Source: a virus (Duplodnaviria > Heunggongvirae > Uroviricota > Caudoviricetes). From it: 64,000 nucleotides of DNA. The translations under genes and the position numbers were made by a program. Where the stretch lies: IMG/VR virus record IMGVR_UViG_3300031993_000021, one strand, 5' to 3'. Position 1 is the first letter of the stretch; each line of letters opens with the position of its first letter. Below are positions 17,413-56,719 of this stretch, piece after piece. Below the pieces are notes generated by a model, which ran no database searches, had not been told where the DNA came from, and worked only from the letters and a program-made list of their open reading frames with translations.

Positions 17413-19122
17413 ATGAGCTTAAAATATGCTGATGAGACAACTTTACAGGAAATGGTCGTAAAGACTAAACAACATGTTGAGTCAGTTCGTTCTACGCTAG
17501 ACTTAGCTAAACAGAACAAGATGGAATTAGCCACAATGCCGCAAGCCTCAGAGGATTATCTGGGGCTTGTAGTTATTTATACAGGTGTTACTAATTCCAC
17601 ATACACACACGGATATATTTACGAATGTGTTTCTGATGGTGGAGATCCCGCTACATATTCTTGGCAGCAGATTACCGTTCAGGATAGTGTGCAGGTTGAT
17701 GGTACTACTATTGTCAAAGACAGTCAGACAGATATTATCTCGGCAGCTGTTGCTACAAACAATACTGTTGGCGTAGTTAAGAGCGGTGATGGAACAAGTA
17801 TCGCGGCAAACGGTGGAGTAGATGTAACAGATAGGCTGAGAGAAGAGTATGTTGATGATCCTGGAAGCACCGTTCAAGACGTGGGCAGATTTGCTTTAAA
17901 TACAACTGAACACGGCGATTATAAGAAGGGCGGTATTTATCAGCTTGTAAGTACTCAGGTTACTCCTGTGGGAACAGAAAATCCCAGTGATGAGGGCTGG
18001 TATGAATATGACAGCACAAATCAGGAATATGAGTTATCTGAAGATGTTACAGTAGATGTTCAAAAGACATACTACACAATCGCATGGGTTTTAGTAAGCG
18101 CCAATTCAACAGAGTTTGATAGCGATGATTTTGATGTGGTCGGTGATAATGTAAGCCTTGACGTGTCTCAGAGAACATTCACAGGAACAAGAGATGAGTG
18201 GGATACATTAAGTAGCTCAGAAAAAGCACTCTACAAGCAAGTTGCACTTACTGATGATGAGGTTGCTTCACACGCTGATACCGATAATGAAATTGCAGAT
18301 ATGAATAATATCTTAGGTGCGAAGAATCTTTTGCCTGTAACAATGGTTTCGCAAGTTTTATCCGGAATTACATTTACTGTGGATGCTTCAAGCGGAGTAA
18401 TAAGCGTAAGTGGAAGCAATTCTGGAAGTCCTTTTAGTGATGTTCTTGGAATAACTACACTAACTCCTGGAACATATAAAGTGACAACAGGACAGACACC
18501 TGAGTTAAATGCACAGATTGGAATAGCTATAACGGATGCTTCTTCTGGAACAATTATAGCGCGTAGTTGGAATGGAACTGAAGTTTTTACAATTTCTTCA
18601 AACACTCAAGTGAGATTTCATATAGAAGTAAATGTTACAGGAGCAATCACTTCAACAGTCGTTTATCCAATGTGTAGACCTTTATCAATTAAAGATGAGA
18701 AATATGTGCCATATGCACCGACTAACCGAGCGTTGACTTTGCGAGTTAGCAGTTTTGAAAAAAAGTTTAATACTCAAGTTAGTATGACCGTCCAACCAAA
18801 TACGACATATTTTAATGCCGCTTCGTCTCAAAGTTGCGCAGCATTAAAAATCGGTTATCTTGTTGTGATGAACTTAGTTTTATCAGTTAAAGATAACGTG
18901 ACGGTTCCTGCTGGCACATTAGCATGCACTATTACCAATGTTGGAGCAATAAGCGCTAACAGCTCGATTTTCCTCGGAGGTAATGGTACATCAAACATCA
19001 CAAGGTTAATGCTTAGGAGAAATCAATCAAATTCCGATAATCTTGATGTTTACTTTATCGATTCTTATAGTAATAGTTCAATGAGAGCATCGCTTGTATT
19101 TATGGTCAATACTATTGTTTGA
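17413..19122 (+). CDS. tail fiber / receptor-binding protein 2
   Basis: Shares the TMPQASE...Y.HGYIYEC module with fiber 1. Shares the central NNILGAKNLLP...GITFTVDASSGVISVSG and VYPMCRPLSIKDEKYVPYAPTN blocks with fiber 3. Confidence 0.55.
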   Translation: MSLKYADETTLQEMVVKTKQHVESVRSTLDLAKQNKMELATMPQASEDYLGLVVIYTGVTNSTYTHGYIYECVSDGGDPATYSWQQITVQDSVQVDGTTIVKDSQTDIISAAVATNNTVGVVKSGDGTSIAANGGVDVTDRLREEYVDDPGSTVQDVGRFALNTTEHGDYKKGGIYQLVSTQVTPVGTENPSDEGWYEYDSTNQEYELSEDVTVDVQKTYYTIAWVLVSANSTEFDSDDFDVVGDNVSLDVSQRTFTGTRDEWDTLSSSEKALYKQVALTDDEVASHADTDNEIADMNNILGAKNLLPVTMVSQVLSGITFTVDASSGVISVSGSNSGSPFSDVLGITTLTPGTYKVTTGQTPELNAQIGIAITDASSGTIIARSWNGTEVFTISSNTQVRFHIEVNVTGAITSTVVYPMCRPLSIKDEKYVPYAPTNRALTLRVSSFEKKFNTQVSMTVQPNTTYFNAASSQSCAALKIGYLVVMNLVLSVKDNVTVPAGTLACTITNVGAISANSSIFLGGNGTSNITRLMLRRNQSNSDNLDVYFIDSYSNSSMRASLVFMVNTIV

Positions 19123-40625: not shown

Positions 40626-40952
40626 ATGAAAAGTGCAGCGGATAACTTGAAGAATGAATTGGGGATTGATATAGACAAGCCAATTCCTGCCTCTTTCAAT
40701 GTGCCTTATTATGTTCATCAAGATGATATGAACAGACAGGAACAGAGCCATAAAATAGAAAGCAACTGGAAAAACGCAATCATTTGTGGACTTATCTTTG
40801 TCTATGTTATTACTATCTTTGGCTTTCTTATTTATGAATCAAACAAGCCAAGCACTCCGGTTACTGTCACGCAGACTACACCAAGTGGGAATAATAGTTC
40901 TTATATAGGCAGAGACAATATGAGTGTAAACACACCCGAAGCGACGGAATAA
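40626..40952 (+). CDS. hypothetical membrane protein
   Basis: one TM helix (AIICGLIFVYVITIFGFLIY). Confidence 0.35.
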   Translation: MKSAADNLKNELGIDIDKPIPASFNVPYYVHQDDMNRQEQSHKIESNWKNAIICGLIFVYVITIFGFLIYESNKPSTPVTVTQTTPSGNNSSYIGRDNMSVNTPEATE

Positions 40953-41031: not shown

Positions 41032-41760
41032 ATGTCACTAAAAACTGATTATAAAGATGATATATTCAGCGGTGATCGTAAATATACCCAAGTAGACAAT
41101 GGTGATGGTACTATATCATTTACTGATGTAACAGAATATGACCAGGTTGGAGACATATTTGGTGCGACTCAGATAAATGAGATTGATGGAAAGATAAATG
41201 GGCATGATACAAGTATTTCTACCATTAATTCAAGCATATCTACCATAAATACAAATATAAACAATCTTAATAGCGAACTTACAGCAAGTGGAACTAAGTT
41301 TTATTTCGATTACAAAAATGGCAAGTGGGGGTGGAATTCAAGCCCTGCGCGGGGTGCCGGTACATTTCACCCTTTTAAGCAATACAGTGCAGCTGGCTCA
41401 TATTCTATAGATGCACTGTTTCATGTAGGTGGTTCAGAGAATGGTAAGGCAAGTACACAGTTGACACTTCCAAGAATGACAGATGATGGTGTTTTATCTC
41501 TTACACAATCTATCTTGTCAGGCTATCGTGGACAAACAACTGCGGTAGATAATAACACACACGGTTATATTACCTTTACCAATAATACGAGAGGCACGAG
41601 TATAGCTTATGGTAGAGATGGAAATTATCAATATTCAGTATCGATAAGTGGATATAATTTAACCTATTATGCTGGGGATATAATAACAGTTTACTGTGAA
41701 GCACAGCAGAAATCTTCTTGGCATGCATATGCTTATTTTGCTTATTCGCTTTCGGCATAA
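41032..41760 (+). CDS. hypothetical fiber-like protein (moron)
   Basis: AGGAGAAATATATG RBS; Ser/Thr/Asn-rich repeats SISTINSSISTINTNINNLNSEL. Confidence 0.35.
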   Translation: MSLKTDYKDDIFSGDRKYTQVDNGDGTISFTDVTEYDQVGDIFGATQINEIDGKINGHDTSISTINSSISTINTNINNLNSELTASGTKFYFDYKNGKWGWNSSPARGAGTFHPFKQYSAAGSYSIDALFHVGGSENGKASTQLTLPRMTDDGVLSLTQSILSGYRGQTTAVDNNTHGYITFTNNTRGTSIAYGRDGNYQYSVSISGYNLTYYAGDIITVYCEAQQKSSWHAYAYFAYSLSA

Positions 41761-43047: not shown

Positions 43048-43443
43048 ATGGCTTACAAGCATTTCAATAATAATCCGAGGCATAAGCATAATGTGGGTGA
43101 CTGCGTGATAAGAGCTGTATCCAAAGCATTACATATTTCATGGGAAACAGCCTACATCGATATGGTAATGCAAGGCTATTTAATGGCTGATATGCCATCA
43201 TCAAACGCGGTCCTTAACTCATACTTGCGTACAAAAGGATTTACAAAGCATACATTACCTGATACTTGCCCTGATTGTTATAGTTTTGAGGATTTTGCAA
43301 TAGATAACCCTCAAGGAACTTTTATTCTTGGAACCGGTACACATGTTGCAGCTTGCATTGATGGAATAATCTATGATGCATGGGATTCTTCTGATTGTGT
43401 GCCTATCTACTATTATGAAAGGGAAAATTATGAATTATCCTAA
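43048..43443 (+). CDS. hypothetical protein, possible papain-like Cys/His peptidase
   Basis: GDCVIRA (Cys) and GTGTHVAACIDGIIYDAWD (His/Asp) arrangement. Confidence 0.25.
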   Translation: MAYKHFNNNPRHKHNVGDCVIRAVSKALHISWETAYIDMVMQGYLMADMPSSNAVLNSYLRTKGFTKHTLPDTCPDCYSFEDFAIDNPQGTFILGTGTHVAACIDGIIYDAWDSSDCVPIYYYERENYELS

Positions 43444-43867
43444 TTATCCGAGTTATTATCAGAACTATCCAAATTATCAGCAACAGTATCAACAGCCTAT
43501 TCAGGTATCTCAGCCCACTCAGTCTATACAGAACATGCAGAATCAGATTCTTGCATGGGTAAGCAGTGAAGAGGAAGGAACAAACTTTCCTTTAAGCCCT
43601 GGGCAGAGTATTTTCCTAATGAACCAGAAAGAACCTTATTTATATATGAAGTCTGTAGACCAGCTTGGTAAGACTACCTTTATCAAGAAGAGACTTATTG
43701 ATGAGAGCGATAATCCTGAAAACAAGATTGATCTTAAGGACTATATAAAAAGGGAAGAGTTAGAGAATCTAATCACGGACAAGATACAGAAAGAGGTTGA
43801 GAAACGAGTATCCCAGATTTCATTTAAACCCACAAAGAAGAAAGTAGTTGAAGATGATGAGGAATAA
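43430..43867 (+). CDS. Q/N/Y-rich low-complexity protein
   Basis: N-terminal NYPNYPSYYQNYPNYQQQYQQPIQ; GGGAAAATTATG RBS. Confidence 0.4.
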   Translation: MNYPNYPSYYQNYPNYQQQYQQPIQVSQPTQSIQNMQNQILAWVSSEEEGTNFPLSPGQSIFLMNQKEPYLYMKSVDQLGKTTFIKKRLIDESDNPENKIDLKDYIKREELENLITDKIQKEVEKRVSQISFKPTKKKVVEDDEE

Positions 43868-47500: not shown

Positions 47501-47845
47501 TTACTTCCTTTCGTTACTGTGAATCATTCTAACAAAGTTAATAATATCTTCCTTGCGGGCATCAGATAATTCTCTAAACATCGATATCAATTCGGTTTCC
47601 TTTATGTCTTTTGCCTTATTATCTGTGGGAACATCACTGTTTAATTGATTTACAATATCATCCGCAGAGACATTCATTACCTGGGCAACTTTATTGATGG
47701 TCTTGATAGTGGGTATAATACTCGAATCTCTTTCTAATAATGAGATATAGGGTGCACTCAAGCCACTTAAAGCTGCAAAACGTCTTATTGACATTTCTTC
47801 TTCACTAGATAAGCGGAAGTTCTTGATTATCTCACCTAATGTCAT
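47501..47845 (-). CDS. cI-like XRE-family repressor
   Basis: HTH LSGLSAPYISLLERD; divergent from the cro-like gene across an operator-rich AT region. Confidence 0.65.
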   Translation of the reverse strand: MTLGEIIKNFRLSSEEEMSIRRFAALSGLSAPYISLLERDSSIIPTIKTINKVAQVMNVSADDIVNQLNSDVPTDNKAKDIKETELISMFRELSDARKEDIINFVRMIHSNERK

Positions 47846-47916
47846 AGCTCTTTCCTCCTAAAAATATAATTGTTCAGATAAATAATAACACAAATGTCTA
47901 ATATGTTCAACATAAA

Positions 47917-47934
47917 TGTATAATATATTATACA
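47917..47934. promoter_or_regulatory. perfect 18-bp palindrome TGTATAATATATTATACA (putative operator), with related half-site copy at 47974-47992
   Basis: Exact reverse-complement symmetry; lies in the cI/cro intergenic region; repeated AATGTC(T/G)AATAT boxes nearby. Confidence 0.5.
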
Positions 47935-48017
47935 CGAAATGTCGAATATATTATTGATTATATTATGTTATAGTGTATAATATATTTAACACGTTCAAAA
48001 CAGTGGGAGGGAGAAAA

Positions 48018-53631: not shown

Positions 53632-53987
53632 TATTTGGAATAAAAACAAAAAAAGATAAGAGAATCGAAGAATTAGATAAGAAAATTGAAGCATTAGAAA
53701 AGTGTAATGATGCGCTTATTTATTCCCTTACACTTAAACCACATATGGTTGAGACGGGTTTGAGAGATATACAAGTTTATGAATGCTCAACTGTTTTGGA
53801 AGATGGGGAACCTGTTGAATGGGCAAAAGAAAGAATTGCAATAGAGTTTAGATTCATGATACATGACGATATTTTCTTCGACATTACTACAGATAGAAAT
53901 ACAGGGAAGAATATTCTGCATGGAAGAATTGGAGTTTCAAGAAGATTAGGAGGGGAGAGCAATGCCAATAAACGAGATGAGACTTAA
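53628..53987 (+). CDS. hypothetical protein
   Basis: ORF. Confidence 0.3.
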   Translation: MIFGIKTKKDKRIEELDKKIEALEKCNDALIYSLTLKPHMVETGLRDIQVYECSTVLEDGEPVEWAKERIAIEFRFMIHDDIFFDITTDRNTGKNILHGRIGVSRRLGGESNANKRDET

Positions 53988-54136: not shown

Positions 54137-54583
54137 ATGCTGCAATTTGAGATTTCAGAGAACTGCATAATGCCAAAGGTTGTTATTGAAGGGAATTACT
54201 ATGGGAGCAAGACGTTTCCTAGCCTTAATAATCTATTGGCTGAGTATGGTAGGCATCCAAAAGGCGGAGGGGCGATGAAACGAAAGTTTGAAAAGATTTG
54301 TTGCGATGAAATCCGGATGCAATTGCCTGGATATGCAGCGAAGAATCCTATCGTACTTCATTACAGATTTTTTGAGCCGCTTGATGGACATTACAGAGAT
54401 AATATGAACATTTTCTCGATGGCAGATAAATGTTTTGAGGATGCGCTTCAGGTATGCAAGGTGATACCAAACGACAATCCAAAGTTCATGCTTAATACGA
54501 CACATGATTTCTTTTATCTGCCTGAGAGATATGGAGAACCATATTTTGAGGTTTATATCGAGGAAATAAATGATAGCAATTAA
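54137..54583 (+). CDS. rusA: RusA-like Holliday junction resolvase
   Basis: FPSLNN ... HYRDNMNIFSMADKCFEDALQ matches the RusA Asp/Asn catalytic region. Confidence 0.45.
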   Translation: MLQFEISENCIMPKVVIEGNYYGSKTFPSLNNLLAEYGRHPKGGGAMKRKFEKICCDEIRMQLPGYAAKNPIVLHYRFFEPLDGHYRDNMNIFSMADKCFEDALQVCKVIPNDNPKFMLNTTHDFFYLPERYGEPYFEVYIEEINDSN

Positions 54584-54758
54584 GGGAATGACAATGCCTG
54601 AGAACTGCGCATATTGTCCGTGCCTATATACGGATTATCAAGGATGGCATTGTGGGACAAAAGAGGGAAAGGATAAAAAGATATGCCAAGATAGTCTTTA
54701 TTTCTCGCAAAGACCGAGTTGGTGTCCTTTGGTAGAGATTGATAATGGGAAAACATGA
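54570..54758 (+). CDS. small Cys-rich protein
   Basis: CAYCPC ... WHCGTKEGKDKKICQ ... WC. Confidence 0.3.
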   Translation: MIAIKGMTMPENCAYCPCLYTDYQGWHCGTKEGKDKKICQDSLYFSQRPSWCPLVEIDNGKT

Positions 54759-55236
54759 TATTAGTGAGCTTAGGCAGTTGCAGAAGTTACCGCTCGATGA
54801 AAAGGTTGAGCGGACAAAAGTAAGGATAAAACAATGGGTAGAACATTACGGTATAGATCATGTATATGTTTCGTTCTCAGGAGGGAAAGATTCAAGCGTT
54901 TTAATGGATATTGCCAGGAAGATGTATCCGGATATTAAAGCAGTTTTTCTTGATACATCACTAGAATTTCCTGAACTTAGGGATTTTGTTAAACGATATG
55001 ACAACGTGGAATACATAAAGCCAAAGATGAACTTTAGGCAAGTGATAGAAAAGTATGGTTATCCTGTAATAAGCAAAGAAGTTTCTGAATGCGTATACGG
55101 AGCAAGAAAATACTTGACAAGCTTGTTACAGGAAATGAACCTTGACAGAACAGAACAGAACAGAACAGAACAGAACAGAACAGAACAGAACAGAACAGAA
55201 CAGAACAGAACATCCTTATTCACAATTCTATCGTAA
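54739..55236 (+). CDS. PAPS reductase-like PP-loop ATPase, N-terminal fragment ending in the (TEQNR)n tract
   Basis: SFSGGKDSSV PP-loop; runs into the CAGAA repeat and terminates 26 nt after it. Confidence 0.55.
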   Translation: MIMGKHDISELRQLQKLPLDEKVERTKVRIKQWVEHYGIDHVYVSFSGGKDSSVLMDIARKMYPDIKAVFLDTSLEFPELRDFVKRYDNVEYIKPKMNFRQVIEKYGYPVISKEVSECVYGARKYLTSLLQEMNLDRTEQNRTEQNRTEQNRTEQNRTSLFTILS

Positions 55237-56119
55237 GATATGCGGAAGTGGCGAGTATGCACGAACCACTGACCAGGGGGGTACGATAACAAGTTTAGAA
55301 AAGTCAGTGGATTGGGAATCTATAGCAAAGATTATGGAAAAGAGAGGAATGGGGAGCGGTGGTTCAGTCCAGAGATTAGCAATAATGATGGGAATATTGG
55401 ACTCGAACAACCAGATAAAGGCAAGTATCCCTAGCAAGGATAGAAGTAATTACTCGCAGGTGCGATACAAATTCCTTTTGACTGCTCCATTTGATATATC
55501 AAACGTCTGTTGTACGGTGTTTAAGAAAAGTATAAGCCATTCGTATAACAGAAAGAATAAGATGCATCCGATGCTGGCAAGCATGGCATCTGAAAGCAGA
55601 TTAAGAACACAGAAGTGGCTTGATAATGGCTGTAATGGATTTGATTTAAAGGAGCCTGTCAGCAATCCGATGGCATTTTGGAATGATTCAGATGTGCTTC
55701 TGTACATAAAGAGAAATGGGCTTGAGATTGCAAATGTATATGGAGATATTGTTCCTGATTATAAAGGTATGAATCAATGCTGCGGGCAATGTTCACTTTT
55801 TGAGGAAACAAATCTGACAACGACAGGATGTTTAAGAACGGGATGTATCGCATGTGGGTTTGGATTGCACTTAGAGAAAAGTCCTAACAGATTAGAGCTA
55901 ATTGATAGAGTAAGTAAGCCTGCGATAAGGGATTTTATCTTGAGGGGAGGAGCATTTGATGAGAATGGATTATGGAAACCAGATAATAGGGGGCTAGGAT
56001 TTTGGTTTGTATATTCATGGATCAATGTTCATGGTGGTTTTAATATCTATATTCCTGAAAAGGAACGCTATGAAAGAGAGTACGGAACAGAACTAACAAA
56101 AAAACTTCTTTTGGCTTGA
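55142..56119 (+). CDS. PAPS reductase / DUF3440-like C-terminal fragment (frame +1 relative to N-terminal fragment)
   Basis: Starts inside the CAGAA tract (TTG). It continues with the Cys-rich CGQCSLFEE ... GCLRTGCIACGF domain. Together the two fragments are about 460 aa, the typical full length. Confidence 0.5.
   Translation: MTEQNRTEQNRTEQNRTEQNRTEHPYSQFYRKICGSGEYARTTDQGGTITSLEKSVDWESIAKIMEKRGMGSGGSVQRLAIMMGILDSNNQIKASIPSKDRSNYSQVRYKFLLTAPFDISNVCCTVFKKSISHSYNRKNKMHPMLASMASESRLRTQKWLDNGCNGFDLKEPVSNPMAFWNDSDVLLYIKRNGLEIANVYGDIVPDYKGMNQCCGQCSLFEETNLTTTGCLRTGCIACGFGLHLEKSPNRLELIDRVSKPAIRDFILRGGAFDENGLWKPDNRGLGFWFVYSWINVHGGFNIYIPEKERYEREYGTELTKKLLLA
55146..55210. repeat. 13 x CAGAA pentanucleotide tandem repeat inside coding sequence
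   Basis: Direct reading of cagaacagaac...; it encodes (TEQNR)4 and splits the gene into two frames. Confidence 0.9.
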
Positions 56120-56155
56120 AGGAATTATCACAGACAGACTGAAAGCCATTATAAT

Positions 56156-56283
56156 CTGCGGTGGAGGAATAGGTAGACGCAACTTGTAGGGGCAAAGAAT
56201 AGGTGGAAGTCCTATTGCTTTAGAATTTGAAGTCCACACGACCTAAAGAAAATTCATGTAAGGTGCAAATCCTTACCCGCAGA
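56156..56283 (+). other. tRNA-like structured element A (about 128 nt)
   Basis: Termini CTGCGGT ... CCCGCAG can pair like an acceptor stem. Internal box GGAGGAATAGGTAGACGC. 3' hairpin GTAAGG TGCAAAT CCTTAC. Confidence 0.25.
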
Positions 56284-56326
56284 ATCGCCAGAAATGGCGG
56301 TCATAGGCAAATCTTCTTTCTTAGTG

Positions 56327-56450
56327 CTGTGGTGGCAGGAATAGGTAAACGCGGACAACATAAGTCTGTGGTCGAAAAGCGTACTATTGACGAGTAGTAG
56401 AAGCTATTCATAAACGAACCACATTGTAGAGTGCAAATCTCTACCCACAG
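56327..56450 (+). other. tRNA-like structured element B (paralog of A)
   Basis: CTGTGGT ... CCCACAG termini; box GGCAGGAATAGGTAAACGC; hairpin GTAGAG TGCAAAT CTCTAC. Confidence 0.25.
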
Positions 56451-56486
56451 CATCACCGAGAGGTGAACCCCATTTAATCGCATGGT

Positions 56487-56556
56487 AGTGCGTTAGCTTA
56501 AGCCGGTTCAGAGCGCTTGGTAACAAGAAATACAGGTTCAAATCCTGTGCGCACTA
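56487..56556 (+). ncRNA. tRNA-like element C (70 nt), possible degenerate or atypical tRNA
   Basis: Acceptor pairing AGTGCGT / GCGCACT. Canonical T-arm ACAGG TTCAAAT CCTGT. D and anticodon arms cannot be folded canonically by eye. Confidence 0.25.
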
Positions 56557-56572
56557 TTAAGGAGGTACGAAT

Positions 56573-56719
56573 ATGGCTGATATTAAACAAGAATGTCCTT
56601 GGATGGTAGATATGTGGGGAATCCCTATATGCAGACTGAATGTACTTCCGTGTGAAAGAGTGCCACAAAATCTCTGTGACCAAAAAAAGGAAACAAATAA
56701 AAATGATTGTAAAACCTAA
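56573..56719 (+). CDS. small Cys-rich protein (48 aa)
   Basis: TAAGGAGG RBS 7 nt upstream; below the ORF-track length cutoff. Confidence 0.35.
   Translation: MADIKQECPWMVDMWGIPICRLNVLPCERVPQNLCDQKKETNKNDCKT

Follow-up and report, generated by a model that had tools for sequence, protein, structure and literature searches.

A CAGAA repeat tract that sets the reading frame of a PAPS-reductase-like phage gene: a probable contingency locus

What is a perfect pentanucleotide repeat doing in the middle of an enzyme gene whose reading frame it breaks? We addressed this question for a 64,000-nucleotide (nt) stretch of DNA, IMG/VR record IMGVR_UViG_3300031993_000021 (the window), which belongs to a temperate phage from a rumen or gut metagenome. 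An initial annotation of the window had described 13 perfect CAGAA units interrupting a gene with an SGGKDS PP-loop motif, resembling PAPS reductases, and had proposed phase variation, with an assembly or sequencing indel as the alternative. Based on the tract, its alleles in relatives, and a survey of the gene family, we conclude that the gene is probably a simple-sequence-repeat (SSR) contingency locus of a temperate phage, present in the window in its OFF phase.

Tract length and reading frame

The description of the tract was borne out by direct reading. (CAGAA)13 is perfect, and the period-5 stretch that contains it (55145..55212) comprises 13.6 copies with 100% matches. It is the sole microsatellite of at least 12 nt within the window, and the chance expectation for even a 4-unit CAGAA run is 0.00 (100 dinucleotide-preserving shuffles). 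In the frame of the upstream open reading frame (ORF1), the tract is translated as (RTEQN)n, given initially as (TEQNR)n. ORF1 starts at ATG 54745, the choice of gene callers in relatives, or at an alternative TTG 54739. After the tract it continues in the wrong frame and ends at TAA 55234..55236, which is 26 nt beyond the tract counting the stop, as first described; its product of 163 amino acids (aa) matches record P0137 exactly. The rest of the gene is read in the +1 frame, also as described (ORF2 as mechanically called starts at TTG 55142), and holds the remainder of the PAPS-reductase fold together with a conserved C-terminal extension. When we rebuilt the gene in silico with 9-17 CAGAA units (n), it formed a single ORF at n=11, 14, and 17 only (456, 461, and 466 aa). 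Hence, one unit more or two units fewer joins both halves into a protein of about the 460 aa that had been anticipated. Because n=13 sets the linker in a stop-containing frame, the gene is OFF in the window. The coordinates are collected in Table 1.

Table 1. Layout of the interrupted gene in the window.
Feature	Position	Strand	Basis
ORF1, N-terminal part, 163 aa, PP-loop half of catalytic domain	54745..55236	+	ORF and frame analysis, Pfam
PP-loop motif SGGKDS, ATP pyrophosphatase signature	54877..54894	+	Direct sequence reading
Candidate Shine-Dalgarno-like AGGAA, then TTG 55142 7 nt on, in ORF2 frame	55130..55144	+	Sequence reading
Proposed primary switch, (CAGAA)13; n mod 3 fixes the downstream reading frame	55146..55210	+	Tract, allelic series
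C-terminal part, +1 frame relative to ORF1	55211..56119	+	ORF coordinates, alignment, Foldseek, dN/dS
Inter-tract linker, 65 nt	55211..55275	+	Three-frame translations
Proposed secondary switch, poly-G (G6 in window)	55276..55281	+	DNA of relatives (G6, G7, G8)
Invariant cysteine dyad NVCC	55502..55513	+	Family alignment
TGCLRTGCIAC cysteine cluster	55823..55855	+	Sequence

The frame is not fixed by the CAGAA tract alone, but jointly with a poly-G run 65 nt further downstream. The linker between them is open in two of its three frames, reading HPYSQFYRKICGSGEYARTTDQ or alternatively ILIHNSIVRYAEVASMHEPLT, and the alternative frame is used by alleles of relatives (P0006 and L003); the TAA of the window allele lies in the third frame. 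This results in a simple rule: (i) when n = 2 mod 3, the ORF is full with G6, which in turn requires this class of n to give a single ORF, and G7 breaks the frame; (ii) when n = 0 mod 3, G7 is needed, and the loop then reads NILIHNSIVRYAEVASMHEPLTRGG; and (iii) when n = 1 mod 3, translation always terminates. Slipped-strand mispairing is the standard cause of length change in such repeats, and in our model it would add or remove units during prophage or phage replication. The first class with G6 would then make the full enzyme, and the second, with the loop in its alternative open frame, would make enzyme only with G7. The third class, to which the window belongs, would run into the TAA past the tract and make the PP-loop half only.

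A series of natural alleles follows this rule. Within the clade of close relatives (at least 85% identity), the window included, we found n = 2, 3, 4, 5, 6, 7, 8, 10, 11, and 13. At the DNA level, ON alleles combined n=5 with G6 (L002), n=11 with G6 (L174-L176, three samples), and n=6 with G7 (L003, L006). OFF alleles combined n=6 with G6 (L005), n=7 with G7 (L007), n=10 with G8 (L004), n=4 with G7 (L177-L179), and n=13 with G6 (the window). Additional alleles seen at the protein level were n=2 and n=8, both ON, and an OFF allele with n=3 and G6, which NCBI annotates as two adjacent genes (MBO4785173.1 and MBO4785174.1). Two further copies, P0142 (n=8 with G7) and P0143 (n=5 with G7), are OFF owing to the poly-G run alone. 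A near-isogenic ON/OFF pair, L006 and L007, comes from different metagenomes and differs by 0 mismatches over 5663 nt and by one 5-nt gap, which is exactly one CAGAA unit. These alleles show that tract length sets the frame, that the alleles are heritable and reproducible, that ON and OFF states coexist in nature, and that the gene is maintained. Taken with the otherwise intact OFF alleles and the purifying selection described below, they support the proposal of phase variation at the level of assembled sequence.

Recurrence in the family and competing explanations

We surveyed the gene family with a frame-blind, DNA-level search of GTDB genomes and IMG/VR contigs, using alignment-based scans. 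Loci were required to have both conserved halves, and the best 80 per collection by tblastn score were retained, leaving 118 loci, or 117 once one duplicate contig was dropped. Ranking by tblastn score is expected to favour intact genes, and the fraction of OFF copies would then be conservative. A scan of IMG/VR with a single protein recovered one distant locus only. A strong linker SSR was defined as a 4- or 5-nt unit with at least four copies, or a poly-G run of at least seven. Split copies numbered 24 and intact copies 10 where such an SSR was present, against 13 split and 70 intact where it was absent (117 loci; Fisher p = 1.9e-8). Every one of the 24 split SSR copies becomes one uninterrupted ORF upon a change in tract length alone, although two need both tracts altered. 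We note that five split loci have weak A or T runs only (L014, L038, L053, L101, L104); a tract change does not restore them, and we did not count them as switch states. Some of these are Mycoplasmataceae contigs, in which TGA is likely read as tryptophan.

The 34 SSR-bearing loci form 19 clusters at 80% identity and 14 at 65%. Their repeats start at codon 126-183 (median 138) and are of several types: CAGAA, CAGAG, GACA/ACAG, GACC, poly-G, and double poly-G. Unit sizes are 1, 2, 4, and 5 nt only; sizes of 3 and 6 never occur. At the same position, at least 16 of the 120 best protein matches have peptide repeats of period 4 or 5 (RTEQN, QSRAE, TDRQ, DRPT), encoded by (CAGAA)n, (CAGAG)17.8, (ACAG/GACA)n, and (GACC)7.5. 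Other relatives have poly-G alone (L031, L033, L092, L093, L102, L108, L113). Homologues that lack a repeat are single ORFs, not pairs of separate genes.

The explanation that competes best with a contingency locus is a slippage-prone accessory gene without adaptive switching, in which the repeat is an accident in a tolerant loop and the out-of-frame copies are heading for loss. Several of our observations fit this explanation, and weigh against adaptive switching. The in-frame share of the SSR-bearing loci is 10/34, about one third, as free drift of a dispensable gene predicts. A GACAGA-like seed is common to every repeat type, so part of their recurrence could stem from mutational bias at this site. 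The loop itself is dispensable, as the linker segment is deleted in P0007 and short-linker homologues do without the loop. Of four near-identical groups, three (n=13, n=11, and n=4) have a consensus n that is constant across samples; switching is therefore not fast enough to scramble consensus alleles. Finally, the n=6/G7 alleles represent a frameshift that persisted until a second site made up for it, rather than reverting.

Other observations speak against this explanation. A further stop or frameshift was found in 0 of the 24 out-of-frame copies. Nei-Gojobori ratios of nonsynonymous to synonymous divergence (dN/dS) were 0.010-0.047 for the N-half and 0.011-0.075 for the C-half in every pair among the window and L002-L005. 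These ranges include comparisons between two OFF alleles, at dS of 0.35-0.94. By this measure, both gene halves are under strong purifying selection, OFF alleles included. The tracts remain perfect although their flanks diverge, and only frame-shifting unit sizes occur, though the loop would tolerate in-frame changes in length. Across 19 lineages, six types of repeat are found at this one site. The linker DNA differs by 2.5% pairwise, compared to 5.7-12.7% in the flanks (2-5x more conserved, the pairs being non-independent), a hint that is compatible with a constraint on two frames, although P0007 lacks this stretch. Weighing both sides, we consider non-adaptive slippage unlikely and a contingency locus the better account.

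A second alternative is that the window allele is not OFF but encodes a two-piece enzyme. When n = 1 mod 3 with G6, ORF1 and a product started at TTG 55142 would reassemble around the loop, giving a partly active third phase. The break falls in a loop that is predicted to be disordered and that joins two well-folded halves, a Shine-Dalgarno-like site precedes a TTG in the correct frame, and gene callers predict this same start in the relative P0132. Among recorded contigs, n = 4, 7, 10, and 13 is also the commonest out-of-frame class, though these counts come from non-independent samples. Those of the abundant n=4 alleles that were checked at the DNA level, however, have G7, which shifts the TTG frame relative to that of the C-half, so the idea is not general; the Shine-Dalgarno-like stretch, moreover, doubles as ordinary coding sequence (LQEMNL). 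We regard AGGAA and TTG 55142 as only a candidate for independent translation of the C-part when n = 1 mod 3 with G6, and a two-piece enzyme as highly improbable.

We give almost no weight to the indel alternative, in which the real unit number is in frame and the window carries an assembly or sequencing error. Short-read assemblers are able to mis-size repeats, but the tract, at 65 nt, is below read length. Contigs from two further samples, processed by different pipelines (L172, a JGI sample, and L173, an ENA sample), match the window at 100% identity along 1998 and 1697 nt, with n=13 and G6 included. Other unit numbers are equally reproducible between samples, as n=11 with G6 was found in three samples and n=4 with G7 in at least three bovine samples. 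Frame-compensating pairs also recur, such as n=6 with G7. A near-identity search of GenBank phages with 5 kb around the locus gave no match, nor did a search of IMG/VR with the exact tract and its left flank.

Both short contigs, L172 and L173, end at window positions 55552-55554. P0012, which is recorded on a 141-kb JGI contig, equals the C-half of the window up to RTQKWL (55604..55621) and continues at ~80% identity; for P0137, the exact ORF1 of the window, the longest contig on record has the same length. These observations suggest a recombination mosaic within the gene, and co-occurring strains.

Programmed recoding, by which ribosomal frameshifting or transcriptional slippage would yield full-length protein from the 13-unit allele, can be dismissed with similar assurance: repeats in general can promote slippage, which is nothing direct, yet the shift required varies with n among relatives (+1, +2, or none), so no fixed recoding signal fits, a slippery heptamer and a long A or T run are absent, and in-frame alleles make recoding unnecessary.

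The encoded protein and its genomic setting

Pfam PAPS_reduct (PF01507) matched ORF1 with 43.7 bits (cutoff 22.5) over profile positions 2-72 of 175, in agreement with the initial naming of the gene. A PF01507 score of 53.5 bits against the same cutoff, the SGGKDS motif, and a fold match by Foldseek place the protein in this superfamily. At a permissive threshold, the C-terminal part gave a faint match to PAPS_reduct positions 135-163 (E 0.15). As its only Pfam match is the C-terminal end of the same profile, the split lies inside one catalytic domain, not between two. The C-terminal part had initially been called DUF3440-like. We rejected a DUF3440 or IbrA-like assignment, since Pfam gave no such match at E <= 0.01 or E <= 10, whether with the fused protein or with the C-part. 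A ParB domain, expected of an IbrB-like partner, was found in 0 of 10 neighbouring window ORFs. In the commonest neighbour of the family we had guessed a ParB-like N-terminus by eye, and Pfam confirmed an N6_N4 methylase domain only.

To place the repeat in the fold, we used an AlphaFold2 model of P0001, an in-frame relative that is 93% identical (predicted local distance difference test score 80, predicted template-modelling score 0.75). Residues 137-174, comprising the repeat peptide and linker, scored <50. Foldseek aligned the model with PAPS/APS reductases over 310-340 columns across both halves, with probability 1.00 and target template-modelling scores of 0.55-0.65; the best structures were 6vpu, 2goy, 7lhr, and 1sur. 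The alignment spans both halves, so one PP-loop fold is formed from both ORFs, and the repeat is predicted to encode the start of a disordered loop inserted into this catalytic fold. The family alignment shows no variation at residues F44-S50 (FSGGKDS), the C242/C243 dyad, C349, C354, and C357. The ON product is one protein of about 440-460 aa in the PAPS-reductase/PP-loop ATP-pyrophosphatase superfamily.

Within this superfamily, the protein resembles CysH in its best structural matches and in its match to PHROG 424 (8e-30). It differs from CysH in its length, which is about double, and in having both a large insert and an extension of 100 aa at the C-terminus; the catalytic motif ECG[LI]H is absent from the protein. 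CysH itself was rejected, as the scores for NF002537 (27.6, cutoff 154) and TIGR00434 (23.1, cutoff 165) fell far below threshold. A sequence search of the PDB gave weak PP-loop matches only. Elsewhere in the family, the homologues P0029 (602 aa) and P0064 (621 aa) have an extra HNH_3 (PF13392) domain in the precomputed Pfam column, and P0085 has a ~36-aa insert in the C-half; insertions are therefore tolerated at more than one site.

The gene lies in the early region of the phage. Its window neighbours, by Pfam, are RecT, a DUF3799 nuclease, a replisome organiser, and a DnaC-like protein, and an integrase or serine recombinase and a repressor are seen in the annotation of relatives. Relatives were found in metagenome-assembled genomes of Lachnospiraceae and other Clostridia and in bovine rumen metagenomes. 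Within 4 kb of the gene, the most frequent neighbours are N6/N4 DNA methylases (28 of 117 loci), followed by C5 methylases and SSB (24 each); five representatives of the neighbour clusters were checked by Pfam.

Based on its cysteines and PP-loop, the protein is a putative adenylating iron-sulfur (Fe-S) enzyme. The C242/C243 dyad and C349/C354/C357 parallel the description of DndC, with its cysteine dyad and three-cysteine Fe-S site (PMC10853773), and APS reductases likewise have CC...CxxC. We tentatively favour a role in nucleic-acid modification because of this DndC-like cysteine pattern and the DNA methylase and SSB neighbours. By analogy, the chemistry could be DndC/SspD-like sulfur transfer or adenylation, an assignment that is tentative at best. 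The likeness to DndC, SspD, and BrxP consists of the PF01507 superfamily, a canonical SGGKDS, the cysteine dyad with three further invariant cysteines, and weak hidden Markov model matches in PADLOC to BrxP (5.5e-11) and SspD (3.7e-7). Both PADLOC matches cover only aa 28-111, the PP-loop region, and the C-terminal 100 aa are family-specific. Three results count against such a role: (i) PADLOC gave no match to DndC; (ii) no NCBIfam family reached its curated cutoff; and (iii) Dnd/Ssp/BREX partners (cysteine desulfurase, DndD/E, SspB/C) were absent from the window neighbours and from the frequent neighbours in the 117 loci.

If the enzyme modifies DNA, stochastic switching would produce populations in which some phage or lysogen DNA is modified and some is not. 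Such mixtures could hedge between hosts that attack unmodified DNA and hosts that attack modified DNA, and on this reading switching may be adaptive bet-hedging against restriction systems. A bolder version, which we regard as rather doubtful, is that temperate phages of gut and rumen Clostridia keep a hypermutable site in a DndC-like nucleic-acid-modifying enzyme by second-order selection. The repeat unit would then turn over (CAGAA, CAGAG, GACA, GACC, poly-G) while the site is retained, and with two interacting tracts and a dual-frame linker the number of expression states would exceed two, a two-piece enzyme perhaps among them. If true, a family now annotated as sulfur auxiliary metabolic genes would serve as an anti-restriction or epigenetic module that can be switched, and phage contingency loci would extend to temperate phages with long multi-nucleotide repeats.

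Some further features of the early regions and of the surroundings of the gene deserve mention. L002, a close relative, has a gene with a Tad8 (PF25189) match (17637..17888) a few kb further on, still within the early region, and also an N6_N4 methylase; C5 methylases are present in L003 and L009. By these annotations, the early regions look rich in modification genes and possibly counter-defence genes. In the window, 21-22-nt tandem arrays of 2-3 copies with 78-85% matches occur at 47888..47986, 40793..40832, 41207..41254, 43434..43477, and 53654..53702. The array at 47888..47954 may be an operator array, since it lies in a divergent intergenic region, with a minus-strand ORF (47501..47845; repressor-like by position, compare relatives) on one side and the rightward early genes on the other.

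Immediately upstream, a 62-aa cysteine-rich ORF (MIAIKGMTMPENCAYCPCLY...; 54570..54758, plus strand) extends 14 nt into the PAPS-reductase-like gene. Gene callers place it at the corresponding position in every close relative (L002, L003, L172-L179). It has no Pfam match and could encode a small partner protein. Immediately 3' of the gene is an ORF-poor gap of ~520 nt (56120..56640), and gaps of ~490-620 nt separate the gene from the next called gene in relatives too (L002 11336..11954; L003 7342..7827). In the window, the gap contains a match to the Rfam tRNA model at 56487..56556 (plus strand; 44.6 bits, gathering score 29), and no other Rfam family at E <= 0.1. ARAGORN called zero tRNAs anywhere in the window. 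The anticodon-loop region has 4 nt compared to 9 in the model, and the match therefore resembles a tRNA-like element with a truncated anticodon arm.

Comparison with known systems

Genes of this family are routinely annotated as PAPS reductase (PHROG 424) and filed under 'host metabolism' (for example in PMC11318856), and split copies are annotated as two genes, like the adjacent NCBI pair above, or as hypothetical proteins. Given this routine annotation and split calling, function and gene counts in surveys of phage auxiliary metabolic genes may be unreliable. For prophage phi14 of Clostridium clostridioforme LM41, the same study lists two ORFs (40 and 42; PHROGs 424 and 2302) under PAPS reductase. 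These may be another split copy, in a cultured strain, and thus a useful experimental handle. Our literature search did not find SSR switching of a phage PAPS reductase described.

Among temperate phages of anaerobic Firmicutes from gut and rumen, the locus offers a clean natural case of tetra- and pentanucleotide tracts that are long. It is well suited to experiments, with its allelic series and near-isogenic ON/OFF pair already at hand; if the enzyme modifies DNA, phage bet-hedging between host defences that are blind to modification and those that depend on it could be studied here.

In bacterial pathogens, contingency loci are a classic feature, and in phasevarions the repeats are typically tetra- or pentanucleotide. 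The mechanism here is that of a classical contingency locus, of which phage examples are rarely documented and have been claimed only recently. Two phasevarion sources (PMC5909438, PMC7383803) describe Type III and Type I DNA methyltransferases of restriction-modification systems whose in-ORF repeats vary between strains and turn the genes ON or OFF. Phasevarion genes are chromosomal bacterial genes, mostly of host-adapted pathogens, with known methyltransferase chemistry. The present gene, in contrast, is phage-borne and not a methyltransferase.

Among phages, Campylobacter phages reportedly carry hypermutable polyG tracts and form ON/OFF subpopulations, a finding that is credited to Sorensen et al. 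in Cell Rep in 2021. These tracts are said to lie in genes of lytic phages that encode receptor-binding or structural proteins, and to act in host recognition. The likeness is a phage-encoded hypermutable tract, and some relatives of the present gene use poly-G alone. The present tract differs in lying in an early-region enzyme gene.

T2 agt and T4 rIIA have been described as phage contingency loci (Gomez, Barrick & Waters, bioRxiv 10.1101/2025.10.21.683753). They share with the present gene reversible frameshifts at a simple repeat within a phage gene, and agt encodes a DNA-modification enzyme, the switching of which trades sensitivity to TgvAB, a modification-dependent system, against sensitivity to McrA/BC. 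In those lytic coliphages the repeats are homopolymers and short (A runs of at least 6), and tetra- or pentanucleotide repeats, temperate phages, metagenomes, and PAPS reductase are unmentioned in that study. Here, by comparison, the repeat is multi-nucleotide with up to 13-18 units, the phages are temperate, the site is family-wide, and a second tract is present; the enzyme's function is the inferred part. Long multi-nucleotide tracts, temperate gut and rumen phages, a PAPS-reductase-like family, a family-wide site, and a two-tract design are thus what this locus adds to the Campylobacter and T-even examples, which cover none of them.

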